From Eledone cirrhosa (lineage: Eukaryota): a stretch of DNA of 64,000 bases. The DNA lies in NCBI GenBank assembly GCA_964016885.1, contig OZ024748.1, forward strand, positions 51,956,001 to 52,020,000, given 5' to 3'. The translations under genes and the position numbers were made by a program. The notes under the pieces were generated by a model. That model was given only the letters and a program-made list of their open reading frames with translations, searched no databases and had not been told where the DNA came from. Of the stretch, positions 14,501-52,430 are shown piece by piece (the stretch's first letter is position 1; each line of letters starts with the position of its first letter).

Positions 14501-14502
<2 letters not shown>

Positions 14503-14610
14503 CGAAGGAGGTGTGGTAAGGAACCAGATAGACTATAACGCACCAGAGTGCTCAGAAATAGCCGTCGAAACGGCTTGAGCTCTGCCGTCGGGGGTCAAAT
14601 ATTTTCCTGT
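14501..14610. mobile_element. family P4 cassette (hammerhead 3' half plus inverted tail piece)
   Basis: GAAA-CGGC(TTGAGCTCT)GCCG-TC-GGGG; homologous to 34791-34987 and 52234-52430. Confidence 0.65.
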
Positions 14611-14629
14611 ATATATATGTGTGTATATT

Positions 14630-14661
<32 letters not shown>

Positions 14662-15013
14662 CATGCACACACCCATATATGCACACAAATATATATATAT
14701 ATTAGAAAGTGAGGTTTTTTTTTACAAAATGAAAGATAACCGAGATGTCCTACACGAAAAAAATATATATTTGGTTCCTTTACTGGTTTCTCGCAGATGT
14801 GAGAAAAACCACAGACCCTCCATCTCAATTCTACTTTTGAAAAGCAAAAGAACAGCGAAACCGGTTTAAGGAACCAAATGAATATATATTTAAAAAAAAA
14901 AGACTCCTGTGGCATTTTCGATTTCATCTTTTTTCCTTATATATAGGCAGCTCCAACCGTTAAGGTTGTCTTTTTTTCCGGGTATGTCAATATTTATTTA
15001 TAAAACAAATCTG

Positions 15014-15079
15014 TATTTTATCTGATGAAAGCGCACCATAATTTGCCTTGGTTGCCCTTGAAATATGTATAATAAAATA
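15014..15079 (+). ncRNA. type I hammerhead ribozyme (family P1)
   Basis: TATTTTAT-CTGATGA-AAGCGCACCA..TGGTTGCCCTT-GAAA-TATGTA-TA-ATAAAATA; perfect 8-bp stem I. Confidence 0.8.
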
Positions 15080-15513
15080 AATATGGTTTTATAAATATAG
15101 TTTCCATTTATTAATATATTGTATATATATATATATGTATATGTTTATAAACATTGCATACATACATGTACATATGATATAAGAGCACATGCATGTGTAT
15201 GTATACACAGTTATAAATACTTTAAAATTCTTGCCAAGCTTACTTATTCTTGTACAATGTTGGTATTTTTAACAGACAATAAACTCATCAAAATTCTATT
15301 CTATGAAATACATTGTATTCTATAGACTAGAATGTTCCTCATTATTATTAGATTCAATTTAAGCTAATCTTACTAATATAAATAATCACATTTCTATATT
15401 ACTTAACTGCCTTCATAATTATTTCATCTAATTGGATTCATTTATAAATTGATATAAACTGATGGTTTCACTTGAGGCAACATACGTGTGTGTGTGTGCC
15501 AGTGACATATATG

Positions 15514-15545
<32 letters not shown>

Positions 15546-15629
15546 TACACACATATATATGTACAAATATATATATATATACAGGCACACACACACATAT
15601 ATATATGTACAAATATATATATATACAGG

Positions 15630-15673
<44 letters not shown>

Positions 15674-15865
15674 CATACATACATACACACACACATGTTG
15701 AACAATAAAAACAAAAGGTGAAGTGCAGTGCTTAAACAGTTCATTGTTTTACTATCGTTTCAGAAGGTTGATTGATCATGATAAATCAATATAGTGACTA
15801 ATCAATAGTAGTTATGTAGCTCCATATCATTTATGCTCCAAATCCATCTTGCCATATTCCTCAGA

Positions 15866-15906
<41 letters not shown>

Positions 15907-16389
15907 GTCATCTCACAAATAATGTCTAGAATATTATATATGTAATTTCTCTTACATATATACATGAAATTTTACAGTATTCTAAATTTCAAATGGTATT
16001 GATTGATACTCCTATATATTTGGAAACCTTTAACTTAATATAATTCTGTTTTAACAGATTAATCTGACTGAATTAATATTAACCCACAAAGACGAATACA
16101 ATTTTTACACACGCCCATATAGATGTATACACAAAAGACATACATGCACATATATGCAACTACGCATGTAAGTAAACGTTATTTGCAAATTGATTGAATT
16201 ATAAATCCACTTTTAGGAACAAGAAAATAAAGAATGCCACAGCTTTGTCTAGACATATATGGTAATGAAATAATAAAGGAACTATTTCAATGTTAAATAG
16301 TCAAACATTGACAATACATAATTGGAGAAAATATTGCCACTTATGTGCATGATCATCATTTTTCGTCTGCTTTCAATACTGGTATTTGA

Positions 16390-17500
16390 AAGCCAATCAT
16401 ATCAACCTGAGTACATGACTGGTACTCTATTTTATCAACCTCTGGAGACTGAAAAGCAAAGTTAACCTTGGTAAGGTCATCATCATCATCACCATTTTAT
16501 GTCAATTTTTCCACACTAGCATGGGTTAAATGGGTTGTCCTGTTGTGGGCGATGCTAGGTCAGGCGACCATGTCTTGCACATAAAGAACTGATTTGTGCT
16601 TGGTTTCTACAGCTGGATTCCCTTCCTAACACCAACGTCATTTATAGCGAGTACTGGGTCCTTTTTTCGTGACACCAGCATGACCACTTTACAGTGTGGA
16701 ATGTAGGATGTAAACTCAAAATGTAAAGAACCAAAACAAATATTGCTAAGCATTTGTTCAACACTATCAAATCTGCCAATCCACCACTTGTTGAGTAATA
16801 CTTTCTGAATTTGGTACAAGGCCAGACATTTTCTATAGGGGAAAGTTGATATGAACTCCAGTGGTTGACCGGTTTTATTTTAACAATGGAAGAATGAAAG
16901 AAAGATAGCCTCAAAATTTGAACTCAGAATATGAAGAGTCAAAATAAATATGGCTGAGCATTCCTTCAATGCTTTAACAACTATGCCAACCCACCACCTG
17001 TAAAATAATTGGTTCTACATTTGGCAGAAGTTCAGCACCTGGAGAGAAGGGAACAGTAGATCAAATCAACCCCAATGCATTACTGATACATTATTTTATT
17101 GATTCTGAAAGATAAAGTTAATCTCAACGAGATTTGAACTAAAATAATACAAATGGTTTCTGATTTAGACACAAGGCCAACAATTTGGAGGGGGAGTGGA
17201 AAGTTCATTAAATCAACTCCAGTGCATTACTGGTACTTTATTTTATTGACCCCATAAGAATGAAAAGCAAAGCTAACCTCAACGAGATTTGAACTCAATA
17301 TTAATAACAATGTTTCTACATTTGGCACAAGGCCAGCAATTACCCCAGTGCATTACTGGTATTTTATTTTATCGACCCCATGAGGATTAAAGGCAAGGTT
17401 AACCTCAGTAGGATTTTAACTCAGAACGTAAAGGGCCATAACTTCATGCTGCAAAGCATGGTGTCTGACGCTCTACCGATACTACCGATACAAACTCAGA
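16390..17500 (-). mobile_element. cluster of head-to-tail family A SINE copies/fragments plus a family B/RTE-tail fragment
   Basis: Repeated ACAAGGCC...CTGGTACTTTATTTTAT..ACCCC...TTGAACTCAG modules. Confidence 0.75.
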
Positions 17501-20500
17501 TAATAATAATAAAACCTGGAATTAAACAATGATACCAAAGGAAGCATCTAGATGGCCCCTCCAGTGGCTAGAAATAGTACTATCAACACCATTCATGCAG
17601 CATAATGCTCTTTATGTATAATGGCTATATCATCATCATCATTATCATCATTTAATGTCCATTTTCCATGCTAGCATTGGTTAGACGAATTGTTCTGACA
17701 TTGTGAAACAAGTTAGATCAAGTGGACAGACAGTTGTATTTAGCTGCTATCTCTAGCACTTTAAGCTCCCCCCCCCCCCATTATGGAGACTCATACTCTC
17801 ACTTTTTTAACCCCTCTTTATTAAACAATATGGTGCTTGTTAATACTTGTTGTCTTGTGTTATATCTCCAATAGGGTACCTTTCAATATCCTCTTATTTT
17901 ACTTACGAAATGTTGAAATAACATATTTACTATATATTTATAGTCAATGAACCACATATATGTTTTCTCTTTGATTCGTTTAGCATTGATCTTTGGTATA
18001 TGATGGCAAATGGCAACAAAATTTTATTACACCATATATCTCACTCAATATCCTTTACTCCTAAAAACTAAAATAAAAAAATAATGTTTGTTGATGAAGA
18101 TTTAAAACTCAGCTAATCAAACAATCATAAACGTTAATACTTTCAGTCTTTCACTAGCAAGAAGATCCACCCTACCACAGCCACTGCATCAATAAATAAC
18201 ATCAACAACAAGAAAAAAACATCTACCAAATTGGAAATGTTAAGGGTCAAGGAAAGATGTAGAAGACAGCTTTGATGGGGGTAGGGAGAAATCTTTTAGC
18301 CTCGTTAATTTTCTCATCCTTTACCTCAAACTTGTTTTTAAAACGAAACAGTGGTGAGGAGTTATTTACATAAAAAGTATCTGTTCTTAGAAACAGAACT
18401 TCAAAGGATATACTTTCTCAGCTATAAATTTAGGGTGGATCTTTCTACTCCTAAGCCTTCATGTATAAGTGTCGACAGGTGTGGATAAAACTGATTTAGT
18501 TGGGGCTATGTAATTCTTTGAAATTTGAGTTTAATGAGAGGAGAAAAAAATGTCCTCAAAACTAACAAACGTTTTTATTTTTGCATGTATGATGGGGTGT
18601 AGGCCTAAGATGCCCCCCAGCTTAATAACGCCACCTGGTCTTTAGGTGCTTTCAGCAGAGTTTACCCTGTTGCACAAGCATAAAAAATAGTTTCTTTCAG
18701 ATGTTCGAGCTGAACATCAGCCACATGAAACTCATCAGTCTGGGAAGGTCTTCAACTGTTATAAGTATAGACTTTCTTCCAATGATTATTACATAAGTTA
18801 GTTTTTCTTCTCCCAATAAATTTCTTATGAAAGTTAACAATTTTGTTATGTTTCTAATGAAATATGCCACCAACAATTTCAAAATATTTTGAAAATAAAA
18901 AGAATTTTTATAGATTTAGTAATATAATTTTCACATTATTAAACTAGTGTTCTGAACATTATAAAGGTTTTTTAGATAAATATAAACATTTTAAAACAAA
19001 AATGTTAGTATCATAGAACAAGGGGCAAATTCGGGTGTTTTGTATTAAAAGGGTTAGTCTATAGACATTCTGTATAAAGATAATAAAAAAAAAATAGTGC
19101 CAGAATATTTTTCAGAGGAAAAGAAATTTTTCTCCTTGAAATTTTCTACTTATTTCTTGTATTTTTTACTTTATATACAACATTATATTTATTTTTTATG
19201 TGAAGCAGATACATAGGTTATTGGAAATAAAATTGAAAATCAAAACAAAACAAGCAATGTGTGGTGAACATTTTTATAGACAAATAAACTGCTTTGAAGA
19301 TTTTAGAGATGAGAGGAGTTGGACATTTGTCTTTGGATTTCGTAAACAAATCCAAATAAACAAATTTGCACATGTGTGGGTATATAGTAGTACATATATG
19401 TGTGTATGTATGTGAGTTTGTATGTGTGTTTTCAGATATTGCTACTACATGTTTGTATGTCTTCTCCCAGATATTGCTCTATAACTATATATATTTGTGT
19501 GCATGTGTTCATGTGTGTATGTGCACATATATGTATGTCTTCTAGATAATGCTTTATACCTATATACCTGTGTGGGTGTTCTTGTATGGATACATACAAA
19601 TTACATAAACATACATTTGTTACCCTGAAGGATATTGCATACGAGGAGGTGGAAAATAGGAAATGTTTCTGTTACAATTGCTCATGGTTACAGATCATTC
19701 TAAGAATTGTGCAGATCCACTACCTTTGGAAAAGCATGAACATCACCACAATGTATCATAACCAATGATGATATTTTATATTTTGAGAACAATACCTTAA
19801 CGTTGGTATGAGCAACTGGTTTGAACAGATAGAGGTGAGAGTTCTGGCCGGATATGGCCGGTTTAAATGCTAAAGGGTTAATGTACACTATCCTTGTTAG
19901 GATGGGTAGGACAGTTGATTAGCAGACCTGTTTGGCTCACAAAACCGAGGTACTTAACCTACAGTTGGCAGGCACTACCCCATTATCCATAAGCTCAGAA
20001 CTCATGACTACTTTGTACAGTTTTTAAGTGTATGTGAGATAAAACCAATCAGGATAGAATACATGTATGAATGTTTGTGTCAATTGAGGTTTTGATAAAA
20101 AAAATTAGGAATGAATTATATTTACAAGAGAATATGATTTACAAAAGGTGAACCAAACCTAACAAGGTGTCATGCCTTAACATCATTGAAACTTACTCCA
20201 GGTGTATTAAAATGTAAGAAACAAATTTAACCTTTTCAGAACCACATTCTAATGTTATACACTGCCTTTCTGTCAAAGTTTAATTTTGACAATAATCAAG
20301 AATTCAGAGAGCTTTAACAAAATAGCTAACCTTTTCATTATTATGATGTTGTTTGGAACATAACTGAACAAAAGGTTCTTATTTAAAATTATGATCAGTT
20401 TTAATTGAAGTACGAACAATTTAAAATGAAGAGCTTTTGTTTCATAAAACTAGAGGGGGTTTCAGTCATGAATTCAATGGGAAATTTTACACATTCATGT

Positions 20501-20921
20501 GTAATAATGTTTTTTCAGATTCCGATTCTAACCTCAGCTGCTCAGGTATGAAGTTTTGATGGCATTGTAACAAAATCCACGTGAGACTGTATTTTTCTTT
20601 TATATTCATTCACTTTCACTCTCTCATTTATTTATTTAATTTAAATAGGTTATTGAAAACATCTACAAAAGGAAAATGATAAGCAATAGGAAATTAATTC
20701 AAAAAATTAAATATGAAAGGGAAAAACCATAATAATAATAATAATAATAATAATAATAGTAATAATAATGACGCACACAAAAAACAAACAAACTAATAAA
20801 CAAATGAAAAGGAATAACAAAAAAAAAATTAACAGTTATGAAAAAGAAATGGGCAAGGGATGTGTTATATAGGTTCATAAACTGTGGTTGGGAAATATAT
20901 ATATATATAAACCTATATATA

Positions 20922-20962
<41 letters not shown>

Positions 20963-21177
20963 ATGAGAAATAGAGAGACAAAAGAAGATAGGAATTAGTG
21001 AATGATTGTGAGGAAGGGAGAAGAATGGCAACTATAGAATTAGCTTTCATCTAAGCTTTAGACTGATATTATTGTTTGTGATAAGGATAAAAAGGAAATG
21101 AAAAAAAAGAAAAAAAATGACATCACTTTCTGTCAAGTTATAAATGAACAGAATTTACAATACCATTTAAGAATAAT

Positions 21178-21360
21178 TGTTTCTACTTTAGGCACAAGGC
21201 CAGCAATTACCCAGTGCATTACTGGTACTTTATTTTATCGACCCCGTAAGGATTAAAGGCAAAGTCAACCTCGGCGGGATTTGAACTCAGATCGTAAAGG
21301 GACGTAACTATGCTGTAAAGCATGGCGTCCAACCCTCTACCGATACTGCCAATCCACCAC
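21178..21360 (-). mobile_element. SINE family A with 21-bp target-site duplication
   Basis: ACAATACCATTTAAGAATAAT at 21157-21177 and 21361-21381. Confidence 0.92.
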
Positions 21361-21546
21361 ACAATACCATTTAAGAATAATGATACAATATGGATGAAGT
21401 TAGTGAAATTATGACATTAACTAGTAACCAAACCATTACTGTTTAATGTTTGTATGTGTGTATGGTTAGCTAAGTACAAAGTGAACACATTCACACAAGT
21501 ATCTCTAAATACATTACATATATAGATATCTCTTTCCATATACATT

Positions 21547-21592
<46 letters not shown>

Positions 21593-21716
21593 AAAGTTCT
21601 ATTTAAATTGTTGGGATACAACAAGCAAATATTTTTATAACTGATATAAAGCACTCAAGTATTTGGAGTAAACATACGATATTAACAAATGGAAACTATA
21701 TTTATAAAACCATATT

Positions 21717-21776
21717 TATTTTATTATACATATTTCAAGGACACCACGTTGAATTCTGGTATGCTTTCATCAGACA
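21717..21776 (-). ncRNA. hammerhead (family P1), stem I 5' arm truncated
   Basis: Inverted copy of 21861-21925. Confidence 0.6.
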
Positions 21777-21860
21777 GTATAGTATCCTGGAGCTTCCAAC
21801 AGTAATGGCTGCATTTTTTAAGGGTATGTCAATATTTATTTATAAAACTGTTATATATTG

Positions 21861-21925
21861 TATTTTGTCTGATGAAAGCATACCATAATTCAACGTGGTG
21901 TCCTTGAAATATGTATAATAAAATA
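21861..21925 (+). ncRNA. type I hammerhead ribozyme (family P1)
   Basis: TATTTTGT-CTGATGA-AAGCATACCA(TAATTCAACG)TGGTGTCCTT-GAAA-TATGTA-TA-ATAAAATA. Confidence 0.82.
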
Positions 21926-22339
21926 AATATGGTTTTATAAATATAGTTTCCATTTGTTAATATCGTATATATATATATATATATATAAAGTATTGCAGAA
22001 CAGATGTTGAGATTATGTCAAATAAAATGAACTCTAAGTTTGAAGCTAGACTGCAACCAAAAAAGTGTCAAGTAGTATTGTAATGCAAATGTGTATGCCT
22101 TCTATGGATATAAAGCTCTTTCAGTAGCTGTTTATTATGGTATGCACAAATACATATCTACACAAGAACATTATAAGTCATTTTCCCTGCTAAATCAGAT
22201 TTTAACCTCTCAGGCCCTGTATAAACATCATGGGTTTTTATTTGGCAATAATTTACGGCCAAATGACTTTTCAAGCTGTAACTAGTTTAGTAACCACATA
22301 CTATGCACATATTTGCATGTGTCTGTGTGTGTGTGTGTT

Positions 22340-22369
<30 letters not shown>

Positions 22370-22370
<1 letters not shown>

Positions 22371-22610
22371 CATCATCATCGTCGTTTAACGTCCATCTTC
22401 CACGCTTGCATGGGTTTGGACGGGAATTTTCCCACTTGAGGCAAGATTGGTTGTCTTGCTTGTATAGGACTGTCTGGTGGGTTTTCTATGGCTGGATGCC
22501 CTTCCTAACACCAACCACGTTTACAGTGTGGACTGGGAGGTTTTTACTGTGTTACCTATATGGCCATATTACAGCATGGACTGTGTGTTTTTTTGTTGTG
22601 ACACCTACAC
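22370..22610 (-). mobile_element. RTE 3' UTR fragment
   Basis: Near-identical to 13432-13670. Confidence 0.85.
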
Positions 22611-23106
22611 AATATATATATATATATAAACTGTCTGTGGTGCCAAGACCAGGGACACCCTTCAAAAGGTTTGCCGAACACAAGCTGAAATCGCTTGGTG
22701 TCACGGTCGGGTTTGTAACTTCCTATATATATGTATATATACACACAAACACAGAGACAAAAGCACAATTGCTGACAATCATATCCTTCTATTCCTGTTG
22801 CCATGGTGCTCATTTATACAACTCTGAACAAACTCAACACACACACACATACTTCCTTTTTTTATATATATATCAGCACATATATGGCAGCATACCTACA
22901 TAAATTACATACATACATACACACATGCATACATATTCATAAGGAATTGTTTAAAAGCATATATCAATACAAGAATAGATATTCATATGAGCACATTTTG
23001 TGTATTTGCATATACAGACACACATGTATATATTTACAAACACACACACACACAAATCTATGGACACCAGCACATATTCACACACATGCACAAACAGACA
23101 GACATG

Positions 23107-23144
<38 letters not shown>

Positions 23145-23274
23145 GCACATACATACTCATATTGGGTAAAGAAATAAACTTATACAAAGATTTTAATACA
23201 TATACATCCAGCAACATCTCTCTCAAATTGTATGAGAACAGTTATACAATCACAACCAAATCCACCCACCCAAA

Positions 23275-23325
<51 letters not shown>

Positions 23326-24290
23326 CACACATACACAAACAAACAAATTACATGCACACAATCATACGCACATATACGTGCACACATGCAGAAAGGCAGC
23401 ACTTGAATGCTTGGGAAGTTAATTTCAAACTTATCTTCCACTGGGAAATTAATTCTTTTAAATTGATCCAAGATAATTCTACCTGGGGCGAAATTCTTTA
23501 GTCTGTGAGTTACAATTAAATTGACTTATCTCCGAATATATAATTAACCAGCCTCCACACAACTCGCAGTCTTGGATTAGAAAAAAAAAATTAAAATAAC
23601 CACTACACACATACATAGATATATGAATAGAAAAATACATTTATACAAATCTATGTATATGCACATATACACATATATATGAACACACGTAAGAAAAGAA
23701 AATCACATACACACACAGACATATATATATATATATATACACTCTTAAAAGAAAATCCCAAATTGTATGCATGCATGTATTTGTGTGTATGTGATGAGTG
23801 TACACAGAGAATACATTAAAAAAAGTGAAAATTACATATAAATACACAGACACATATACATGCAGAGATCTTGGAAAAAATATCTCACAAGTGATGCACA
23901 CACAACTTAGAAGAAAAATTATACACGCATTAATATACATATATATACATACATGCTCAACCTCTCTCGCAATACAATTTTAAAATCACATACTTGGACG
24001 AAACAAAAAGATACAATGCATACATACACACACACATATATATATTCAAAGAAAATACCATGTAAATACACATATATTCATACATAAATACACAAATACA
24101 CATATACATGAAATGAAGAATGCAAGAAGAAAAACTTAAGGCAAATTTGATTATAGTTATCATTATATTACTATTATTGTTATCGTTATTATTATTATTA
24201 TTACTATTATTAACATTATCATCTTTATTATTTCTTATACTGTAAACTTTATGAATGGTAAATCTGTGTTCTATATTTTAGCATATCTAA

Positions 24291-24339
<49 letters not shown>

Positions 24340-24750: not shown

Positions 24751-24885
24751 AGAAATATCAATCCATTGCTAAATATTAAAGTATGTAAGATAAAGTATAG
24801 GTGTGTGTGTGTATATATATAAATAAATATACAAACACGCACATGTAAGTATATACATACACACATGGCTTTTATATATATATAT

Positions 24886-25245
24886 ATTGTTATACTTTGG
24901 GAGGGTCATGTTGACAATAAGAAACACATGCACCAGTTGCTTTCACTTCAATTTATTACAAATTAAATTATACATTTAAAAAAATTTATAAATTTCTGGT
25001 TGGTTGGTTCCACAACCGGACGGTTGTTCACATATTGTCAAAGTTCTTTCGTCACACATTCTGTGACCTCTTCAGTGACTGGGGATTGTTTTCTTTGTTT
25101 TGTGCCTCTGCTTTGTCCTGTCCTATGCCATCTTGTTTTTGTCTGTGTTTCTTATTGGCAACATGACCCTCCCAAAGTATAACAAAATCGGTTTCAACAC
25201 ACGTTTTCAGATAAAGAATCTTGCTAAACAAATTCAGAAACGACA
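24886..25245. mobile_element. family P2-related cassette: inverted ORF-start arms around a minus-strand hammerhead
   Basis: 24887-24928 is the reverse complement of ~25144-25185; + arm reads MTLPKYNKIGFNTRFQIKNLAKQIQKR. Confidence 0.75.
25037..25079 (-). ncRNA. type I hammerhead ribozyme (P2-related)
   Basis: Minus strand: GTCA-CTGAAGA-G-GTCACA(GAATG)TGTGAC-GAAA-GAAC-TT-TGAC. Confidence 0.82.
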
Positions 25246-25286
25246 TATATATATATATATTTATAAATTTCCGGTTGGTTGGTTCC

Positions 25287-25633
25287 TCTAACAAAATGCA
25301 CCCCCGTCCCACTACCCCCACCCCATCCACACCAGCCCTTTCAATGTAAAGTTATGTTGGTACCACAACATCCAGCCTGAAACAAATGAGGTCGTGTAGG
25401 TGTCACAACAAAAAAAACACAGTCCGCGCTGTAATGTGGCCATGTAGGTAACACGGTAAAAACCTCCCAGTTCCACAATGTAAATGTGGTTGGTGTTAGG
25501 AAGGGCATCCAGCCGTAGAAAACCCGCCAGACAGTCCTATGCGAGCAAGACAACCACTTTTGCCTCAAGTGGGAAAACTCCCGTCCAAACCCATGCAAGC
25601 ATGAAATATGGACGTTAAACGATGATGATGATG
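25287..25633 (+). mobile_element. RTE 3' UTR fragment
   Basis: Reverse complement of 13432-13775. Confidence 0.85.
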
Positions 25634-26093
25634 ATATATTCTCGTCTAAGTGCCCAAAGAGTAGGTTACAATCTGGAGATATGGTCAATATTGGGCCTTG
25701 AAACCTTAGGTACCACATTTTATTCCTTGTGTAACCAAAATAGATTAGAGTCTTTTAAGAATATCTATTTTCTTTACTGGTTTCACAGTTCTTATAATTT
25801 TCAAAAATAAAATTGAGATGGAGGGTTTGTGTTTTTGTTGTGTGTCTCACATCTAATTGGAATTCGAAAATTCTTTGGAAGATAGACATTAAATGATGGT
25901 GATGATATATTATTTATGTTCATAAATGAAACAAAAAGTGCTACCTAAGGTTTCATGGTCTAGAATGTGTATGATGATTCATTAGGTCATCAGCAAACTA
26001 GACTATTTAGTGACATGTGTGTTTGTGCGCGTGTGCTTGTGTGTGATCCAATCTTCCATAGGGAACACAAGAACCTAAAGCAGAAGAGATATA

Positions 26094-26910: not shown

Positions 26911-27140
26911 TTTTAAATAAACTTGAATCAACTGAATATGACCTTGGATCTTTTTTGAATATATAATGCTCCGTCTTGAACCATTTATACAGGTTGTTGA
27001 GCGGTTCTTTTTATCTGCTTCACAACCGACAGACCATGGTGTGATCCGCACATCCCTGTTCGGTTAACTCCTTACTCTTACATATATATATCTAGCTGTC
27101 GAAACGGCTGGAGCTCAGCCATCGGGGTCCTGACTCTTTT

Positions 27141-27189
<49 letters not shown>

Positions 27190-34610: not shown

Positions 34611-34790
34611 TGGGTGTTCCCCTTTTAACAGACAATAAAAGACAGATGCAAAACAATAAATAGAAACTATTATTTTATCATTTCCTCCTTAATGTTGTAA
34701 GATGTACATTGTTGAATGTTCAGATCTGTGGGTATATTTGTACATATATATATATCTATGTATATACATATATATATATATATATATATA

Positions 34791-34987
34791 GAAAAAGGTA
34801 TGACCCCGACGGCAGAGCTCAAGCCGTTTCGACGGCTATTTCTATTTGAGTCCAGAAATAGCCGTCGAAACGGCTTGTGCTCTGCCGTCGGGGTCATATC
34901 TTTTCCTATTTCCCACTCGACTACCCTAAGTATTGAGTACTCTTGTGCGTTATGGTCCATCTGGTTCCTTACCACAATTCCTTTGTT
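34791..34987. mobile_element. family P4 cassette: inverted pair of hammerhead 3' halves plus tail
   Basis: Arms 34791-34843 and 34854-34906; GAAA-CGGC..GCCG-TC; flanked by (TA)n. Confidence 0.75.
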
Positions 34988-35532
34988 ATATATATATATA
35001 TACATACACACACACAACATACATATATATATATACACACACAACATACATATATATATACATACATACACATAACATGCAAATATTCACCAATACATAT
35101 AAGTATATATATTACATATATATATACATACACACATATATATAAATATATACTTACATAAACACACACATATATAAATATATAGTTACATAAACAACAC
35201 ATATATATACATACATACACATTACATATATACATACACATTACATATATATATATACACACAGACACAACATATATATATACACACACACACATATATA
35301 TATATATACACATAATATGCATATATATATATATATATATATATAGTGAATTATTATACCTAAGTATACTTAAAGGACATTTATCTAACACCAAGTACAT
35401 ATTGACAGTTCCTTCTGAATTTCCAAATTCTGTTTGAATCTCATCCCCTCTGCCACCCCTCACCTCTCTTTGTATATATATACATATATATATATATATG
35501 TGAGTATATATATATATATATATACATGTATA

Positions 35533-36875: not shown

Positions 36876-37484
36876 TGGTGGCTGCCAACTCGTTTTCGAG
36901 TACGGCCACTACTTTATATCCATGTAGGAGAACCCCTACTGATGCGCTGAACGAGTGTGACTTTTTAGTCCAGCCAGCGACTTGAAAACTCTGGTACAAA
37001 GACTACACTTGTGACAATTATTGACACATAGTGTTGGGCCCATGGTACCATGTGACGACAAGTGCAGAGAGATCTCCAGATATAAAGCAATGCCTGTGCC
37101 GTGAAGCTTTTATAGTGAGCAAAGGCACTGCACAAAGCCAGTCCCACTCTCTTAACCAAGATGATATTTACCAAAAAGAAGAACAAGTCAACATCATTGG
37201 ATACCATCAGGGTTGCAGGTGTTATATCAGAGTTTTCCTTCTCCTAGAATTCTGCCTTGACAAAGGCTAAGGGGTCATCTCTCCCGGTGATTTTGGATGG
37301 CCATTGACTCTTAAGAGCTCCTTTGCCCTTTGACAGGTTTTGTTTTTAGTCCTGCAGGATGTCCAAAGTCACCCTCCTCACCAAGAAACCTTGGTGGGGT
37401 TGCCAGTTTAGTCGCCAACGACCCGACCATGAGACAGGTTGTACTGGGATACATGTTACCAGTAGCACCAACTGGTGACCTGAC
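36876..37484 (-). mobile_element. non-autonomous, internally deleted RTE derivative, copy 1
   Basis: Minus strand carries an RTE-type 5'-UTR motif CTAGGAGAAGGAAAACTC and a terminal C2H2 finger [23 protein letters not shown] (36936-37007). Confidence 0.7.
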
Positions 37485-40975: not shown

Positions 40976-41584
40976 TGGTGGCTGCCAACTCGTTTTCGAG
41001 TACGGCCACTACTTTATATCCATGTAGGAGAACCCCTACCGATGCGCTGAACGAGTGTGACTTTTTAGTCCAGTCAGCGACTTGAAAACTCTGGCACAGA
41101 TACCCCACCTGTGACCATTATTGACACATAGTGCTGGGCCCATTGTATCATGTGATGACAAGTGCAGAGATATCTCCAGATATAAAGCAATGCCTGTGCC
41201 GTGAAGCTTTTATAGTGAGCAAAGGCACTGCACAAAGCCAGTCCCACTCTCTTAACCAAGATGATATTTACCAAAAAGAAGAACAAGTCAACATCATTGG
41301 ATACCATCAGGGTTGCAGGTGTTATATCAGAGTTTTCCTTCTCCTAGAATTCTGCCTTGACAAAGGCTAAGGGGTCATCTCTCCCTGTGATTTTGGATGG
41401 CCATTGACTCTTAAGAGCTCCTTTGCCCTTTGACAGGTCTTGTTTTTAGTCCTGCAGGATGTCCAAAGTCACCCTCCTCACCAAGAAACCTTGGTGGGGT
41501 TGCCAGTTTAGTCGCCAACGACCCGACCATGAGACAGGTTGTACTGGGATACATGTTACCAGTAGCACCAACTGTAGCACCAAC
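40976..41584 (-). mobile_element. RTE derivative, copy 2
   Basis: Near-identical to 36876-37484. Confidence 0.75.
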
Positions 41585-42301: not shown

Positions 42302-42333
<32 letters not shown>

Positions 42334-42437: not shown

Positions 42438-42479
<42 letters not shown>

Positions 42480-42585: not shown

Positions 42586-42728
42586 CCCTAGAAGAGGAAG
42601 ACCTAAGGACAGACACTGGTCTGTTGGAGACGCGGGACATGGCAGCGATAATGAGGGACAGAGACCGCTGGAGAGAACTCGTCCATGGATCTCAGGAATT
42701 TTACCCGCCTTAGATAGATAGATAGATA
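42586..42728 (+). mobile_element. RTE/RTE-X LINE extreme 3' fragment with (TAGA)n tail
   Basis: PRRGRP / [27 protein letters not shown]. Confidence 0.75.
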
Positions 42729-42729
42729 T

Positions 42730-42814
<85 letters not shown>

Positions 42815-42817
<3 letters not shown>

Positions 42818-45036
42818 TCATCATCATCATCATCATCAACGTTTAACGTCCGTGTTCCACGCTTGCATGGGTTTGGACGGGGGTAGTCCCACTTGAGGCA
42901 AGAGTGATTGTCTTGCTCGCATAGGACTGTCTGGCAGGTTTTCTACAGTTGGATGCCCTTCCTAACACCAACCACATTTACAGTATGGGTCTGGGAGGTT
43001 TTTACCGTGTTGCCTACACGGCCACATTACAGCGTGGACTGTGTGTTTTTTTGTCGTGACACCTACACGATCTCATTTGTTTCGGCCTCGATGGCGCGGC
43101 ACCAACATAACTTTACATAGAACGGGGTGGTGTGGATGGGGTGGGGGTGGTGGTGGTGGGACGGGGTGTATTTTGTTAGAGATGCCTACTGGCTGGAGTA
43201 GGTTTTACTATATATTTAGGTAAGGCGGGTCTTCTCTGTTACTGAGTACCGCCAAAGGTCTCGGTCCAGTGACATTGTCTTGGAGAGGTGTAAGTGTGTG
43301 ATGTCGGAGTTTATCAGCTCGTCCCAGGATTTTCTAGGTCTGCCTATTCCGTGACTACCGTCTATCTTTATTGCCCTGCACTTTGTTATACAGCTATCGA
43401 CTTTCATGCGCATCACGTGTCCATACCAACGTAGCCTTCTCTCGAGTAAACAACATCTGATCCCTCTTATCTCTAATTTTTTCCTTAGTTCGTTTATGCT
43501 TTGCCGTTCACGTATATTACTGTTACACATCCAGCGGAGCATGCAAGCTTCGTTCCTCTCTAGTCTGCGTATATCCTCTGCACACAATGCCCAGGTCTCA
43601 CTGCCATGCACCATTGCTGTTCGTATGCAGGCATCGTACAACCTGCCTTTCATTTTTAGGGAGAACCCTTTAGCAGCTAATAGTGGTATAAGCTCTCTGA
43701 ACTTTTTCCAACCAGTTCTGACTCTAGCTACAGTACTTTCAGAGCACCCTCCCCCACTGCTGATTTTATCGCCCAGGTAACGGAATCTGTCCACTATTTC
43801 TATAGAACCCTCTGCGCAATTGAAAGAGCTAGTATTTTGTGGGCAATTGCTGCTACTTATTGCACCAGAGCACCGGCCACATGTAAAATCTATGTTCTTA
43901 GTTAGCTTACCTGTGATCCCACTACATCTTTTATGCACCCATACTTTGCATTTAGGACATAAAATGGAGTTTCTACCTACGCCTTTCCTACACACCGAGC
44001 ACGACCATTTCCCAGAAGGGACCGCCGCCTTGTTTTCTTTCCTACAAACTAGTACTTTGGTCTTAGCCAGGTTAATTTTAAGTCCTTTTGACTCTAGGCC
44101 GTGCTTCCATGTTTGGAATTTCTTCTCTAGCTCGGCCATTGATTCCGCTATGAGTGTCAGGTCGTCTGCGTATAGGAGTTCCCATGGGCAGCCTGTCTTG
44201 AACTCCTCTGTTATAGCCTGAAGGGTAATAATAAATAGTAGTGGGCTGAGAACAGAGCCCTGATGGACGCCAACTTTTACGCTAAACTCTTCACTATATT
44301 CGTTGTTAATTCTAACCTTGCTGACTGTTTCTTTATACATGGCTTGTATAGCCCTCACAACGCCTAGTTTTCTAAGAGCCCACCAGATAATGGAGCGGGG
44401 GACTCTGTCGAAGGCTTTCTCCAAGTCGACAAAAGCTAAGTAGAGGGGTTTACCTTTAGCTAGGTACTTCTCCTGTAGTTGTTGTACTATGAAAAGAGCG
44501 TCTGTGGTACTTTTGCCTGACACAAACCCGAACTGCATTTCATCTAGGTCAATTCTCTCTCTGATTAGTTGCGCTATTACTTTTTCCGTGACCTTCATGA
44601 CCTGGTCGATTAATTTAATGCCTCTATAGTTACTCCTATCTAGGGCGTCTCCTTTACCCTTATAACAGTTAACGATGATGCTGCTATGCCAGTCCTTCGG
44701 AACAACCCCATTCTGTACGACTTGGTTAACTATGCGGGTGACCATGTTGTGTCCCACCGTGCCAGATGCCTTCAGCATCTCAGCAACTATTTCCGAAGGC
44801 CCAGCCGCCTTACCCGTCTTCATATCCTTGATTGCCTTACTTATTATACTCCCCTCGACTAATACTGCTGGTCCCTCTATTGGGTCGATATGGGGGAGAC
44901 TGTCTTTCTCCCATTTATTCTCCTCATTTAGTAGCCTTTCATAGTGACACTTCCAAGCTACCTTCTTATCAGCGTCGGTGATGGCAAGTGTGCCATCGTC
45001 GTTTAGTACACACTTCTCCCCGACAATATCACGGGT
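42815..45036 (-). mobile_element. RTE-clade LINE, 5'-truncated
   Basis: RT ORF, ~400-bp 3' UTR and (ATG)n tail. Confidence 0.95.
43216..45036 (-). CDS. RTE reverse transcriptase (partial, no endonuclease) with PHD-finger-like insertion
   Basis: KAAGPS, YKGKGD..NYRGI, QFGF, FVDLEKAFD, GVHQGSVLSPLLF, LYADD, FRYLG; CSVC..CPKC..HKRC..CGRC. Confidence 0.9.
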   Translation of the reverse strand, partial: TRDIVGEKCVLNDDGTLAITDADKKVAWKCHYERLLNEENKWEKDSLPHIDPIEGPAVLVEGSIISKAIKDMKTGKAAGPSEIVAEMLKASGTVGHNMVTRIVNQVVQNGVVPKDWHSSIIVNCYKGKGDALDRSNYRGIKLIDQVMKVTEKVIAQLIRERIDLDEMQFGFVSGKSTTDALFIVQQLQEKYLAKGKPLYLAFVDLEKAFDRVPRSIIWWALRKLGVVRAIQAMYKETVSKVRINNEYSEEFSVKVGVHQGSVLSPLLFIITLQAITEEFKTGCPWELLYADDLTLIAESMAELEKKFQTWKHGLESKGLKINLAKTKVLVCRKENKAAVPSGKWSCSVCRKGVGRNSILCPKCKVWVHKRCSGITGKLTKNIDFTCGRCSGAISSSNCPQNTSSFNCAEGSIEIVDRFRYLGDKISSGGGCSESTVARVRTGWKKFRELIPLLAAKGFSLKMKGRLYDACIRTAMVHGSETWALCAEDIRRLERNEACMLRWMCNSNIRERQSINELRKKLEIRGIRCCLLERRLRWYGHVMRMKVDSCITKCRAIKIDGSHGIGRPRKSWDELINSDITHLHLSKTMSLDRDLWRYSVTEKTRLT

Positions 45037-45081
45037 ATATATATATATATATATATATACATACATGTATATATATATAAA

Positions 45082-45320
45082 TGGTGGTGGCTGCCAACTC
45101 GTTTTCGAGTACGGCCACTACTTTATATCCATGTAGGAGAACTCCTACCGATGCGCTGAAGGAGTGTGACTTTTTAGTCCAGCCAGCGACTTGAAAACTC
45201 TGGTACAAACACTACACTTGTGACAATTATTGACACATAGTGCTGGGCCCATGGTACCATGTGACGACAAGTGCAGAGAGATCTCCATATACAAAGCAAT
45301 GCCTGTGCCGTGAAGCTTTT
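45082..45320 (-). mobile_element. RTE derivative, copy 3 (5'-truncated)
   Basis: Matches 36876-37111. Confidence 0.75.
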
Positions 45321-45336
45321 ATATATATATATGCAT

Positions 45337-45367
<31 letters not shown>

Positions 45368-45370
45368 CAT

Positions 45371-45401
<31 letters not shown>

Positions 45402-45404
45402 CAT

Positions 45405-45482
<78 letters not shown>

Positions 45483-45486
45483 ACAT

Positions 45487-45520
<34 letters not shown>

Positions 45521-45566
45521 ACATACATACATGTATATATATATATATATATACATACATACATGG

Positions 45567-45599
<33 letters not shown>

Positions 45600-45718
45600 C
45601 ATACATACATACATATATATACACATACATACATACATGTATATATATATATATATATACATACATACATACATGTATATATATATACATACATACATAC
45701 ATGTATATATATATACAT

Positions 45719-45751
<33 letters not shown>

Positions 45752-45957
45752 CATACATACATACATGTATATATATATATACATACATACATACATGTAT
45801 ATATATATATACATACATACATACATGTATATATATATATACATACATACATACATGTATATATATATATACATACATACATACATGTATATATATATAT
45901 ACATACATACATACATGTATATATATATATACATACATACATACATGTATATATATA

Positions 45958-46566
45958 TGGTGGCTGCCAACTCGTTTTCGAGTACGGCCACTACTTTATA
46001 TCCATGTAGGAGAACCCCTACCGATGCGCTGAACGAATGTGACTTTTTAGTCCAGCCAGCGACTTGAAAACTCTGGTACAAAGGCTACACTTATGACCAT
46101 TATTGACACATAGTGCAGGGCCCATGGTACCATGTGACGACAAGTGCAGAGAGATCTCCAGATATAAAGCAATACCTGTGCCGTGAAGCTTTTATAGTGA
46201 GCAAAGGCACTGCACAAAGCCAGTCCCACTCTCTTAACCAAGATGATATTTACCAAAAAGAAGAACAAGTCAACATCATTGGATACCATCAGGGTTGCAG
46301 GTGTTATATCAGAGTTTTCCTTCTCCTAGAATTCTGCCTTGACAAAGGCTAAGGGGTCATCTCTCCCGGTGATTTTGGATGGCTATTGACTCTTAAGAGC
46401 TCCCTTGCCCTTTGACAGGTTTTGTTTTTAGTCCTGCAGGATGTCCAAAGTCACCCTCCTCACCAAGAAACCTTGGTGGGGTTGCCAGTTTAGTCGCCAA
46501 CGACCCGACCATGAGACAGGTTGTACTGGGATACATGTTACCAGTAGCACCAACTGGTGACCTGAC
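45958..46566 (-). mobile_element. RTE derivative, copy 4
   Basis: Near-identical to 36876-37484. Confidence 0.75.
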
Positions 46567-46884
46567 ATATATATATATACATACATACATACATACATGT
46601 ATATATATATACATACATACATACATACATGTATATATATATACATACATACATACATACATGTATATATATATATATATATACATACATACATACATAC
46701 ATATACATACATACATACATACATATATATACATACATACATACATACATGTATATATATATACATACATACATACATACATGTATATATATATACATAC
46801 ATACATACATACATGTATATATATATACATACATACATACATACATGTATATATATATACATACATACATACATGTATATATAT

Positions 46885-46915
<31 letters not shown>

Positions 46916-47496
46916 CATACATACATACATGTATATATATATACATACATACATACATACATGTATATATACATACATACATACATGTATATATATATAT
47001 ACATACATACATGTATATATATATATACATACATACATGTATATATATATACATACATACATGTATATATATATATACATACATACATGTATATATATAT
47101 ATACATACATACATGTATATATATATATACATACATACATGTATATATATATATACATACATACATGTATATATATATATACATACATACATGTATATAT
47201 ATATATACATACATACATGTATATATATATACATACATACATGTATATATATATATACATACATACATGTATATATATATATATACATACATGTATATAT
47301 ATATATACATACATGTATATATATATACATACATACATGTATATATATAAACATACATACATACATGTATATATATATACATACATACATACATGTATAT
47401 ATATATACATACATACATGTATATATATATACATACATAGATGTATATATATATACATACATACATGTATATATATATACATACATACATGTATAT

Positions 47497-49539
47497 AGAA
47501 CTATAAACAAATCTAAGAGCAGAATCCCTAGAAATAGAAAAACACTCATCAGAAAAATTAAGAGAACGAACAAAAAAATCAACAAGCTGAAATACTGTCA
47601 GCAGCAACACATCAACTTGACTGCCATTTCATCACTAGAGATTAAAAAACATAACCTCCAAAACAACATAATGTCCCTCATCAACAATCAGAGAAGAGCT
47701 GAAGAGGCCTGGGCCATTGAGAAGATCAAACTCAATCCCAAAGTGTTCTTTTCATTTGCAAAAAAACACAAAATCACTGGCTCTACTGTTGGCCCTCTAA
47801 TTGATGAAAATGGCACTCTTCAAGACAATGCTAAAACCATGGGTGAGATACTGCAGAAACAATACTGCTCTGTTTTCAGCAATCCTGATATGGCCGATCT
47901 GGGCTGTATCGGCGATGTTACTCCCCATTACACCTTATCGGACATAACGTTTGGCGCCCCTGATGTCTTGGCGGCAATAAAGGAAATCAAGCATAATTCA
48001 GCAGTAGGTCCCGATAGGTTCCCTGCTTGTGTCTTGAAGGCGTGTCAACACCAACTTGCTTCTCCTCTTGCCAATCTGTGGCGGAACTCACTGGATGCTG
48101 GATATGTGCCAGAAAACCTTCTATCCCAGTCTGTTGTCCCAGTTTTCAAAAAGGGAAACAAATCCCTTGCCGTGAATTACCGTCCAATCTCACTCACCTC
48201 TCATATCATTAAGGTATTTGAGCGAGTGGTGAGATCGCGAATGACCCACTTCCTTGAGAGTAACAATATGCTGAACTCCAACCAGCATGGATTCCGTAAT
48301 GGAAGGGATTGCCTGACGCAACTACTGCATCACTTTGATGACATTTTGAGAGCCTTGGGAGAGGGTTCCAACACTGATGTTATCTACCTTGATTTCAGCA
48401 AGGCCTTTGACAGGGTTGATCATAACATTCTACTGAGAAAGCTGTCCAATATTGGTGTCACTGGAAAGCTGCTGCAGTGGATCAAGAGCTTCCTGTCAAA
48501 CAGAACCCAACATGTTGTAGTTGAGGGAGTCAAATCAAGCCCAGCCAAAGTCAGTAGTGGAGTCCCACAAGGCACTGTGTTGGGCCCACTTCTCTTCATC
48601 ATCTATATTAATGACATCACTGACATCATCAAACACAGCAACATTAAAATTTTCGCTGATGATTCCAAGCTCCAAAAGGTCATCAATGGCGTGGATGACC
48701 GGATAAGCCTTCAGTCAGACCTACTGGCTGTTACCCAATGGGCAGAAAAGAACAACATGTTACTGAACGAAGATAAATTCGAACTGATCCACTTTGGAAA
48801 AGAGGATGCTCTGAAACTCCCGTACTCCCTTCCCTCCGGGGAAACTCTCGTGGCATCTAACAACATCAGAGACTTGGGAGTAACCGTGGACAGCAACATA
48901 AGCTGGACCACGCATATAAGCAGCAAAGTTGACATGGCCCGCAGAATGTGTTCCTGGATCCTCAGAACCTTCCAGTCGAGAGATTCCCGCACCATTATCC
49001 TTCTCTTCTCTACTTTCGCCCGACCACACCTTGAATACTGTTGTCCACTGTGGTCTCCCCACACGAAACAAAGTATCATGAAACTTGAAGCTCCTCAAAG
49101 GGCAATCACGAAAAAGATAGATGGCATGTCAGACCTTGACTACTGGGGTCGATTGGAAAACCTGAAACTTTACTCACTCCAACGTCGCCGTGAGCGTTAT
49201 ATTATCTGCATGATGTGGAAAATGTTCCATCATCACTGCCCAAATGATGTTGGCATCGCCTTCAAGATACACCCAAGGCTTGGGCCCCGTGCTATCCGTC
49301 CCATTCAAAAATCTAAATCGCAACTCATAACAACAATACGGCACAATTATTTCACCTCAATCGGCCCTGCTCTCTTCAACATCACACCAGGACACGTCAA
49401 AACAGAAACTGACCACACAAAATTCAAGAAGTCTTTGGACAAATTCCTCCAAGTAATCCCGGACAAACCACCCACACCCGGATATGTCTCCGCAAACAGT
49501 AATTCTCTTCTCGAATGGGCCATGGTGCCCAAATCCTGA
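47497..49539 (+). CDS. CR1-group (CR1/Crack/L2-like) LINE ORF2, 5'-truncated, intact RT
   Basis: [75 protein letters not shown]; no stops. Confidence 0.93.
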
Positions 49540-49615
49540 ATTGAAAGACTTCGCCAGGTGGTGCTATTAAGTTAGACATGGCCTGGGCCAATACTGGCCA
49601 AAACATTTCAAAGTT
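49540..49615 (+). other. short LINE 3' UTR with stem-loops running into (TA)n
   Basis: CCAGG..CCTGG and GGCCA(ATAC)TGGCC. Confidence 0.6.
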
Positions 49616-50551
49616 ATATATATATACATACATACATGTATATATACATACATACATACATATATATATACATACATACATACATACATATATACATACA
49701 TACATACATACATACATACATGTATATATATATACATATATACATACATACATACATGTATATATATATACATACATACATACATGTATATATATATATA
49801 CATACATACATACATGTATATATATATATATACATACATACATACATGTATATATATATACATACATACATACATGTATATACATACATACATACATGTA
49901 TATACATACATACATACATACATGTATATATATATACATACATACATACATGTATATATATATACATACATACATGTATATATATATACATACATACATA
50001 CATGTATATATATATACATACATACATGTATATATATACATACATACATGTATATATATATATACATACATACATGTATATATATATATACATACATGTA
50101 TATATATATATACATACATACATGTATATATATATATACATACATGTATATATATATATACATACATACATGTATATATATATATACATACATGTATATA
50201 TATATATACATACATACATGTATATATATATATATATACATACATACATGTATATATATATACATACATACATGTATATATATATACATACATACATGTA
50301 TATATATATACATACATACATACATGTATATATATATACATACATACATACATGTATATATATATATACATACATACATGTATATATATATATATATACA
50401 TACATACATGTATATATATACATACATACATACATGTATATATATATATACATACATACATGTATATATATATACATACATACATGTATATATATACATA
50501 CATACATACATGTATATATATATACATACATACATGTATATATATATACAT

Positions 50552-50585
<34 letters not shown>

Positions 50586-50749
50586 CAACATCATTTAACG
50601 TCTGTTTTCCATGCTAGCAAGTGTTGGACATATTTGTGTGAGTGCATGTATGACAGTGTATGTGAGTGTGTGTATGTGTATGAGTGTGTGAGTGCATGTA
50701 TGACAGTGTATGTGTGTATGAGTGTGTGCATGCATGTGTTAGTGTACAA

Positions 50750-50792
<43 letters not shown>

Positions 50793-51404
50793 TGTGTATT
50801 CCTTTCAATATCATTTCAATGATAAGCAATGAATACAAATTTTTGAAAAATTATAATGCAATTACAAATATATTTTAGTTACAGCCTCTTTGTTATTATA
50901 TTGTTGTGGTTTTTATTATTAAATTAAGAAATCATTATTATTATTATAATCCTCTTTATTGTTGTCATCCTCATCGTTGTAAATAAAAGATAAAAAAAAA
51001 ACTGACATCATCATCATCATCATACAATTGTTTTCAATATAGTTATTTTCAAAAGTATTCATTTCAACTACAACTATTATTATTAGCATTATTATCATTA
51101 TTAGTAGTAGTAGCAGTAGTAGTAGTGATTCTATTGTTATCCTCAATATTATTAGTATAATTACCATTATCATTATCAATAAAATTATCCCCCGCCTCAT
51201 CATTATCATAATTGTTATTATTGTTATTAATATTGTTATTGTTGTTATTGTTGTTGTAATTTTAGTTATTGTAATCATTATCATAATAATTATTTTATAG
51301 AAATTTATATAACTAATTTATTTATTTCTGTGATATTTCTCTGCTGACACCTTACAGGACATTAATACTTCCAAATATCCAGATAATATAAGTAGAGCAC
51401 ATGA

Positions 51405-51628
51405 GGATTGGCAGTAGAATCGGTAGAGCATTGGACAACAAATGTTGTGGCATAGTTACATCCCTTTTATGTTCTAAATTCCAATTCTACTGAGGTTAGC
51501 TTTGCTTTTCATCCTTACGAGGTCGTTAAAATAAAGTATCAGTAATACATTGGGGTTAATTTAACTGGCTTTCCCCTTTACCCCAAAAATTGTTGGCCTT
51601 GTGCCTAAATCAGAAATTATTATTATTA
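51405..51628 (+). mobile_element. SINE family A
   Basis: Homology to other copies. Confidence 0.8.
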
Positions 51629-51714
51629 CATGCATATTTTCATTCCAGTATGAAACTCAATCTTGTCAGTATGGCATCAGTCTGAATAAATTGAATTTTT
51701 TTTTTTTCCAGTAT

Positions 51715-51928
51715 TTAAACCTTTAGCATATACATTAACCTATATTTACTCTTGTATTTTTATGGTAAAGGCTTTATTTCACATAATATCAAATCTATGA
51801 GATTTTGATATTTATTTTGAGAACAATACCTTAACATCAGTATGAGTGGCCGGTTACAACCAGTTTGAAGAGAAAGAGGTGAGAGAATTCTGGCCAGATA
51901 CGGCCGGTTTAAATGCTAAGGGGTTAAA
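51715..51928. mobile_element. piggyBac-like MITE
   Basis: Homologous to 1778-1994; ends GGG|TTAA. Confidence 0.72.
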
Positions 51929-52233
51929 TATGGAATGTACTGCTTTTGTTAAAAACTGTTGACAGATTTTCTGATTCAACATAGAAAAGTTGCCATACAG
52001 GTCACCAAACTAAATATCAAACCTCATCAATAGATTAAGGTCTCTCTTTACCAGTATATGTAAGATGCATGAAACCAATTGTTTATTGTGACTACCAGTC
52101 TGCACATGTTACCACATCTCTGATGCAATATATGTGCAAAACAGCTCAGCTTGTTATAATGATCACATTTTATTTCCTTTCTTTGATGGAGGCCCAACAT
52201 GCATTTGTGTGTGTGTATATATAAATATATATA

Positions 52234-52424
52234 TAACAAAGGAGTTGTGGTAAGGAACCAGATTGACCATAACGCACCAGAGTACTCAATACATGGGGTA
52301 GTAGAGTGGGAAATAGGAAAAAGTATGACCCCGACGGCAGAGCTCAAGCCGTTTCAACGGCTATTTCTGGACTAGAAATAGCCGTCGAAACGGCTTAAGC
52401 TCTGCCGTCGGGGTCATACTTTTT

Positions 52425-52430
<6 letters not shown>
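52234..52430. mobile_element. family P4 cassette (opposite orientation to 34791)
   Basis: Arms ~52316-52368 and 52374-52428; tail on the minus strand. Confidence 0.75.

Follow-up and report, generated by a model that had tools for sequence, protein, structure and literature searches.

We analysed a 64,000-nt stretch of DNA from Eledone cirrhosa (assembly GCA_964016885.1, contig OZ024748.1, positions 51,956,001–52,020,000 of the forward strand; hereafter the window), in which four loci carry a short cassette, P4, that resembles the 3′ half of a hammerhead ribozyme. The window has 33% GC and consists to ~21% of dinucleotide microsatellite; with its many short dispersed repeats and a single reverse-transcriptase (RT) open reading frame (ORF), it reads as animal non-coding DNA, and its repeat content may be octopus-like. 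The P4 cassettes are copies of one very abundant repeat of ~200 bases, and all four loci hold the same element, inserted in (TA)n.

Anatomy and abundance of the P4 element

Six arms are present across the four loci, which are named here by position in thousands. Both full copies (34788–34986 and 52236–52429) comprise a 56-bp head-to-head palindrome with a 77-bp tail on one side only, in the order (TA)n, 77-bp unique segment, 56-bp arm, centre of 5 or 10 nt, inverted arm and (TA)n (Table 1). Read in the hammerhead sense, the unique segment runs on unbroken from one arm and is a tail on that arm only. The full copies align over 202 nt with 91% identity (34789–34990, minus strand, against 52232–52428, plus strand), and within each the two arms match at 53/56 and 54/56 positions, in agreement with a preliminary description, made from the sequence alone, of two near-perfect palindromes. 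That description had placed the motif at four loci, where we found it within 1–3 bases, and had called the copy at 27092 slightly shorter (by ~4 nt, as measured here); it had missed both the tail that unites three of the loci and the (TA)n tracts on either side. At 14.5k, 54 bp of inverted tail is joined to an untailed arm, and at 27k a lone arm belongs to a second subfamily, b. (TA)n adjoins both ends at all four loci, and a fixed target-site duplication is unreadable inside it. The ends of the 14.5k, 34.8k and 52.3k copies, when compared, are unrelated and form no terminal inverted repeats, and an nhmmer search of the window returned no further copy (next match, E = 1.1).

All five subfamily-a arms begin at the same base, with the same AGAAATAG, and the 27k arm is the shorter one. 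The centres of the palindromes differ, and at position 52322 both arms agree within each element while the elements differ (A/A and G/G; one site in two copies). The differing centres and this shared site fit arms copied from one template at insertion.

Sequencing reads were searched with a query comprising the tail, one arm and the centre (52236–52375) in 4 of 7 runs, namely two contig sets and two restriction-site-associated DNA (RAD) read sets. The query matched 15,883 of 17,142,217 and 397 of 762,587 contigs, as well as 20,752 of 12,467,656 and 21,457 of 12,785,554 RAD reads (0.17%); because RAD sampling is biased, the last figure shows a very abundant family and gives no copy number. At the tail end (52239 and 52246) and at the untailed end (52313), the loose ends consist of (TA)n, in run X5 with 6073 + 1477 reads at the former and 3634 at the latter, and the loose-end consensus of 1346 and 1441 reads is the subfamily that matches the 27k copy. 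The strand changes in 14 of the 15 joints listed (27 in total). In these opposite-strand joints the left ends scatter over 52275–52336, so that products of the 14.5k type form a recurring class, and the right ends lie at 52367–52374 in 11 of 14, an 8-nt zone at the hairpin centre. The shared 5′ boundary of the untailed arm is therefore real and narrow, and the recurrent truncation point that had been suggested for P4 is upheld.

Table 1 Positions of P4 parts and of sister copies in the window.
Feature	Position	Strand	Remarks
Outer 54 bp of P4 tail, inverted, abutting (TA)n	14501–14554	−	91% to 52234–52288 (alignment)
Untailed arm, subfamily a: stem II 3′ strand/GAAA/stem III with GAGCTC loop/GUC/stem I 3′ strand, then (TA)n	14554–14612	+	
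Lone untailed arm of subfamily b, flanked by AT tracts; base of stem III disrupted (AUC)	27092–27145	+	Same subfamily in read loose ends
Untailed arm, full copy 1	34788–34843	−	
10-nt centre, palindrome 1	34844–34853	no strand	
Tailed arm, full copy 1	34854–34909	+	
One-sided 77-bp tail, full copy 1, containing GTATTGAGTAC, ends in (TA)n	34910–34986	+	
One-sided 77-bp tail, full copy 2	52236–52312	−	71/77 identical to copy 1
Tailed arm, full copy 2	52313–52368	−	
5-nt centre, palindrome 2	52369–52373	no strand	Equals the tail-proximal 5 nt of the copy 1 centre (alignment)
Untailed arm, full copy 2, ends in (TA)n	52374–52429	+	
Sister copy: (TA)n, ~85-bp one-sided tail, inverted piece, direct unit, (TA)n	21590–21964		
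Sister copy: tail + direct unit, like 14.5k	8506–8770		
Sister copy: unit alone, like 27k	14952–15117		

Hammerhead features of the arms

Both GAAACGGC and GAAA (G12-A13-A14-A15.1) are present in 6/6 arms, and five of the six continue into a Watson–Crick stem III of 4 bp with the U-H cleavage site (U16.1, H17), the exception being 27k, which has AUC and a C-A mismatch. The 5′ half of the core, C3-U4-G5-A6-N7-G8-A9, is missing: no arm has an exact CTGANGA in the 200 nt upstream, nor one at a single mismatch in the 70 nt upstream. A GAAA/stem III/GUC strand lacking CUGANGA had been proposed at the outset and is borne out; the palindromic GAGCTC loop attributed to it is intact in 4/6 arms and altered in the other two.

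Among 20,000 dinucleotide shuffles of one arm, 92 contained GAAA, a stem of at least 4 bp, a loop and U-H on either strand, and 4 did so with a 6-nt palindrome in the loop; the criterion was picked after the motif had been seen, and the loose pattern also matches 8 other places in the window. A hammerhead 3′ half of this kind is unlikely by chance. Between subfamilies a and b the GAAACGGC, GAGCTC and GGGGTC blocks are kept and neighbouring bases are changed, and within the family the core positions decay like the rest of P4 (C11.1>T, G16.2>A and changes in the loop). Judged from these sequences, a hammerhead origin of P4 is likely, but it is not proven because no intact parent was found. A type I hammerhead was ruled out, the 5′ core being absent, and a type II topology, with CUGANGA 3′ of stem I, was rejected, there being none inside the element.

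Rfam reported no hammerhead at the gathering score. Local Rfam scans were blank for P4 and also for an intact-core control at 21790–21965, and are uninformative because they missed that control too; in an E-value search of the window, matches of microRNA models to microsatellites dominated among the matches listed (150 of 901). A pattern scan of metagenomes gave 85 loci, all read as chance, with a median GC of 0.62, 77/85 aligned over at most 21 nt, none with (TA)6 and none with CTGANGA within 60 nt upstream. Pattern scans of viral contigs and of GTDB genomes gave 0 matches.

Insertion mode and origin of P4

The basic layout of the family is (TA)n, an inverted tailed piece of variable length, a direct untailed arm with a fixed 5′ start, and (TA)n again. 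This anatomy matches the insertion pattern published for Penelope-like elements (PLEs). In PLE insertions, an inverted 5′-truncated copy lies beside a direct one and only one end is tailed (PMC8557442), and palindromes at their head-to-head junctions have been interpreted as self-priming (PMC3846280). With purified PLE protein, AT-rich DNA receives a nick in each strand, two RT start sites bracket the tail, and a hammerhead-dead PLE RNA is still inserted in vitro (PMC11167929). P4 shares with PLE insertions the head-to-head inverted pair, the one-end tail, the junction palindrome and the heavy 5′ truncation (PMC3846280; PMC8557442), and differs from them in having no direct full-length copy or ORF and in a junction that lies inside the hammerhead, in stem II, where published junctions lie upstream of it.

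We favour, with a probability of about 0.72, the reading that P4, a short non-coding family of high copy number, stems from the 3′ end (pseudo-long terminal repeat (LTR) and tail) of a (TA)n-targeting, hammerhead-bearing PLE, perhaps one of the Hydra clade, and that a PLE protein mobilised it in trans. The missing hammerhead half is best read as a by-product of the insertion mode, not as a designed partner for another RNA. To judge by published PLE biochemistry, the protein would nick both strands of AT-rich DNA, and reverse transcription would start at two sites on the RNA, at the tail end and at an internal site ~20 nt after GUC. Two complementary DNAs (cDNAs), or one cDNA folding back on itself, would be joined head to head. 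The usable 5′ end of the template would lie within ~10 nt immediately upstream of the stem II 3′ strand, probably in a hairpin loop at which copying halts or folds back, and both cDNAs would end in or just past that strand. With the template boundary 3′ of CUGANGA, every product would lack CUGANGA and be catalytically dead. A full-length tailed cDNA would yield a palindrome (34.8k and 52.3k), a short one would yield tail plus arm (14.5k), and its absence would yield a lone arm (27k). RNA from a palindromic copy would itself loop at the boundary, which could keep the boundary fixed.

An AT-rich sister family in the window provides an internal control, as it combines a complete CTGATGA...GAAA core with a P4-like layout and the same three product types (Table 1). 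Its direct unit starts at one fixed point in 3/3 copies and has a variable inverted partner, and the fixed 5′ start of P4 is thus ordinary for short PLE units here; the only difference is that the P4 start falls inside stem II. Further hammerhead-bearing head-to-head pairs lie at 9578–9708 and 61323–61542, and complete cores at 7982 (+), 25075 (−) and 59000 (−). In both P4 and the 61k family, GTATTGAGTAC occurs ~40 nt after GTC.

Other hammerhead-bearing repeats of the window are recorded here as observations. The 61087–61625 family, which shares GTATTGAGTAC with P4, has two degenerate cores, one at 61129 (+) and another near 61432 (−), continues head to tail beyond its head-to-head pair at 61323–61542, and has a GAAACAGTT 3′ half resembling that of Hydra-1_Amil. 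A further (TA)n-flanked family (7811–8197, 9578–9708, 9750–9949, 24880–25236 and 12331–12502) has minimal hammerhead cores at 7982 (+), 9676 (+) and 25075 (−) and a 131-bp head-to-head palindrome. At 58870–59105 (−), a single minimal hammerhead, at 59000 (−), lies between AT tracts; its stem II/loop contains GGACTAG, as does the P4 52k centre, probably by chance. Long imperfect palindromes at 8337–8500 and 59227–59458 had no hammerhead core found by scans.

The clade nearest to P4 is, tentatively, Hydra. Hydra-clade PLEs, including Hydra-1_Obim, insert in (TA)n and carry hammerheads with a 3–4-bp stem III near, and within ~100 nt of, the 3′ end (PMC8557442). A (TA)n microsatellite target is shared by Neptune and Naiad PLEs. 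The RT and endonuclease proteins of the Hydra clade are marked by DKT and CxCX5C motifs and the lack of CCHH; no ORF linked to P4 was found in the window. Inspected by eye, the Hydra-2_Amil tail matches P4 GTATTGAGTAC at 10/11 positions and the Hydra-2_Ajap tail contains GAGCACTCT, a GAG(C/T)AC-type word being found in the tails of 2/6 new consensus ends. Unlike P4, the Hydra clade has the full CUGANGA core and loops III of 1–3 nt; P4 can be a derivative of the clade, not a full member, since its 5′ core is absent. Identity of P4 with Hydra-1_Obim was rejected, as the 3′ ends differ.

The minimal hammerheads of metazoan PLEs (PMC4209133) resemble P4 in C11.1-GAAA, a palindromic loop 3, close opposite-strand pairs and the scattered single motifs that truncated PLEs leave, whereas P4 lacks C3–A9 and has a stem III longer than their typical 1–2 bp. 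Non-LTR retrozymes (PMC7229834; bioRxiv 10.64898/2026.07.22.740005) are likewise short, non-autonomous, hammerhead-related and thought to be PLE-derived, but they are head-to-tail tandems with complete type I hammerheads and P4 is head-to-head and incomplete; a retrozyme was ruled out on the absence of head-to-tail order. No description of a family restricted to the 3′ half of the hammerhead was found in the literature searched, mostly without subscription papers and Repbase.

Several observations weigh against derivation from a hammerhead-bearing PLE in this manner. The P4 tail measures 77 bp, against 30–40 bp in published PLE insertions, and its 9-nt loop III exceeds those of the animal PLE hammerheads published so far. 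The Hydra tail matches were made by eye in 2/6 consensus ends, and variants of the short word also occur at unrelated places in the supplement. Two GCCGT copies are alternative pairing partners for GAAACGGC, so that an internal repeat could account for part of the resemblance to a hammerhead, and the likeness of P4 to the intact-core families is borderline (shuffle p 0.05–0.07, 100–132/2000, for the best three of seven comparisons). Copies of the 14.5k type could also be derived by one-sided deletion of an existing palindrome, and the read query stops at 52375, which limits what the clustering of joints can show. Finally, neither the window nor the read tables yielded a parent that carries CUGANGA or a PLE ORF, GIY-YIG matched 0/29 window ORFs scanned, and the read tables show neither P4 end extending into longer sequence.

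The search for a parent covered both window and reads. Copies extending 5′ to GACCCC-CTGANGA, which had been anticipated from the sequence, were sought in the window: there were 10 matches, all with 2 mismatches, against 6.0 expected (8/100 shuffles reach 10), and none lies next to a P4 arm in the required orientation. The letters tabulated between read joints fill 2 rows of 2 letters each and include no CTGANGA copy between the stem I and stem II strands. The loose ends listed number 24 of 539, those behind 52363–52374 agree only at ~0.4–0.55, and 14,155 of the 20,752 X5 reads overrun the query ends; the region upstream of the centre is thus mostly unseen and the CTGANGA negative is weak. Longer P4 motifs gave no match at the DNA consensus ends in the accessible supplement of PMC8557442, a search that can miss motifs split by line breaks. 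The RT ORF of the window (43216–45066, minus strand, 616 aa) has an RVT_1 match (E = 2e-31) followed by a PHD finger; it lacks GIY-YIG and is not linked to P4. This ORF may belong to an RTE-type long interspersed nuclear element; related pieces lie at 13433–14439, 22370–22610 and 25285–25635.

It is conceivable, although we think it doubtful, that P4 has no CUGANGA master at all and is a self-perpetuating non-autonomous PLE family, amplified to very high copy number once it had lost the hammerhead 5′ half. The 3′ half (GAAA, stem III, the GAGCTC palindrome and GGGGTC), conserved in at least two subfamilies, would then be kept as a cis signal for binding to, or dimerising on, PLE protein.

The main PLE rival, which we regard as improbable, places the source of P4 in a Naiad/Chlamys-type 3′ end whose hammerhead-like structure is non-canonical and never had a canonical upstream CUGANGA, so that nothing was truncated. 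Naiads target (TA)n and make the same inverted tailed insertions without canonical hammerheads (PMC8557442), and the supplement annotates Naiad_Ovul as HHR_half_core. All three GTCGAAAC matches there lie, by eye, ~105–115 nt from the 3′ end, the distance in P4 being ~120, and two Octopus Naiads have GAAA followed by a 4-bp stem and a loop with a 6-nt palindrome. The Naiad stems, however, have no U-H cleavage site, which five of the six P4 arms possess; the three 8-mer matches are at about chance level for that supplement, on a rough estimate; and the longer P4 motifs match no DNA consensus end in it. Cephalopod Naiads are moreover old remnants (PMC8557442), whereas the two full P4 copies retain 91% identity. 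P4 and the HHR_half_core ends share the (TA)n target, the insertion anatomy and an incomplete hammerhead core, but those ends keep CUGANGA and P4 keeps only GAAA, stem III and GUC. Of 19 further Naiad ends inspected by eye, several have CCCC-CTGANGA and none is P4-like. As a separate observation on the same supplement, several arthropod Naiad ends have CCCC-CTGANGA and then a strand able to pair upstream, and in the Octopus Naiads the GAAA-stem stands ahead of CTGATGA; Naiad 3′ ends may, from such sequences, be a permuted or pseudoknotted hammerhead variant that standard descriptors miss.

We also consider it improbable that P4 is a palindromic DNA element, of the miniature inverted-repeat transposable element (MITE) or foldback type, with a chance resemblance to a hammerhead. 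P4 is short, non-coding, high-copy, located at TA sites and built on a long palindrome without any CUGANGA found, and palindromic ~200-bp Harbinger repeats are known in frog (PMC5625713). The preliminary description had held that absence of a CUGANGA copy would make P4 an ordinary MITE; this does not follow, as tailed copies do not end in inverted repeats, which makes an ordinary MITE unlikely. The tail is also collinear with one arm, the length of the left piece varies continuously in reads, the shuffle p for the hammerhead half is 0.005 or less, and other copies in the window combine this layout with intact hammerhead cores.

The preliminary description had further raised the idea of a substrate strand, in which P4 transcripts are cleaved in trans by the enzyme strand (stem I 5′/CUGANGA/stem II 5′) of an intact copy. 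A hammerhead split into two strands through helices I and II is chemically valid. Here those helices are computed at about −14 and −20 kcal/mol with an enzyme strand, and the loop palindrome is kept across subfamilies. In single arms, GAAA is predicted in the loop of a competing 6-bp hairpin (p 0.62–0.99), with a stem III probability of 0.37 at best and otherwise ≤0.05; helix II binding would displace this small hairpin, so that single-arm copies might in principle be cleavable. Both strands of both full copies are instead predicted to form arm-to-arm hairpins (whole element, −113 to −121 kcal/mol; arm-to-arm pairing, about −100 kcal/mol), with C15.2 paired to the other arm at p = 1.0 and the motif buried, which makes trans-cleavage of palindromic copies unlikely; the three-way junction fold is not predicted, as the arm-to-arm or the competing hairpin dominates. 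As no enzyme strand was found in the window or the read tables, the core positions decay like the rest and an intact copy with matching stem II would first pair with itself, we judge a role as trans-cleavage substrate very improbable.

Neighbouring repeats and biological meaning

Two further features of the window lie apart from P4. A family of ~320 bp (11950–12288, 54154–54491, 58529–58849, 59905–60223 and 60303–60614) is a tRNA-derived short interspersed nuclear element whose head resembles a tRNA (60303–60370, 29.4 bits with the Rfam tRNA model). Near-identical units (93–98%) of 230–600 bp (36877–37482, 40977–41574, 45086–45319 and 45959–46564) alternate with (TA/TG)n tracts of several kb, a pattern produced by recent segmental amplification within the region.

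As it stands, P4 is one more short PLE-type repeat family. When transcribed, a palindromic copy would give a double-stranded RNA of ~56 bp, a likely substrate for ADAR or Dicer; palindromic repeats are heavily edited in frog (PMC5625713). With its thousands of junctions, P4 could show whether PLE inversions arise by fold-back or by the joining of two cDNAs. Cleavage by the PLE hammerhead was dispensable for insertion in vitro (PMC11167929), and a very abundant family without the catalytic half would test the role of the hammerhead naturally, in vivo. If P4 has no CUGANGA master and the 3′ half is kept as a cis signal, the family would be natural evidence from living animals that PLEs need the hammerhead for its structure, not for catalysis.

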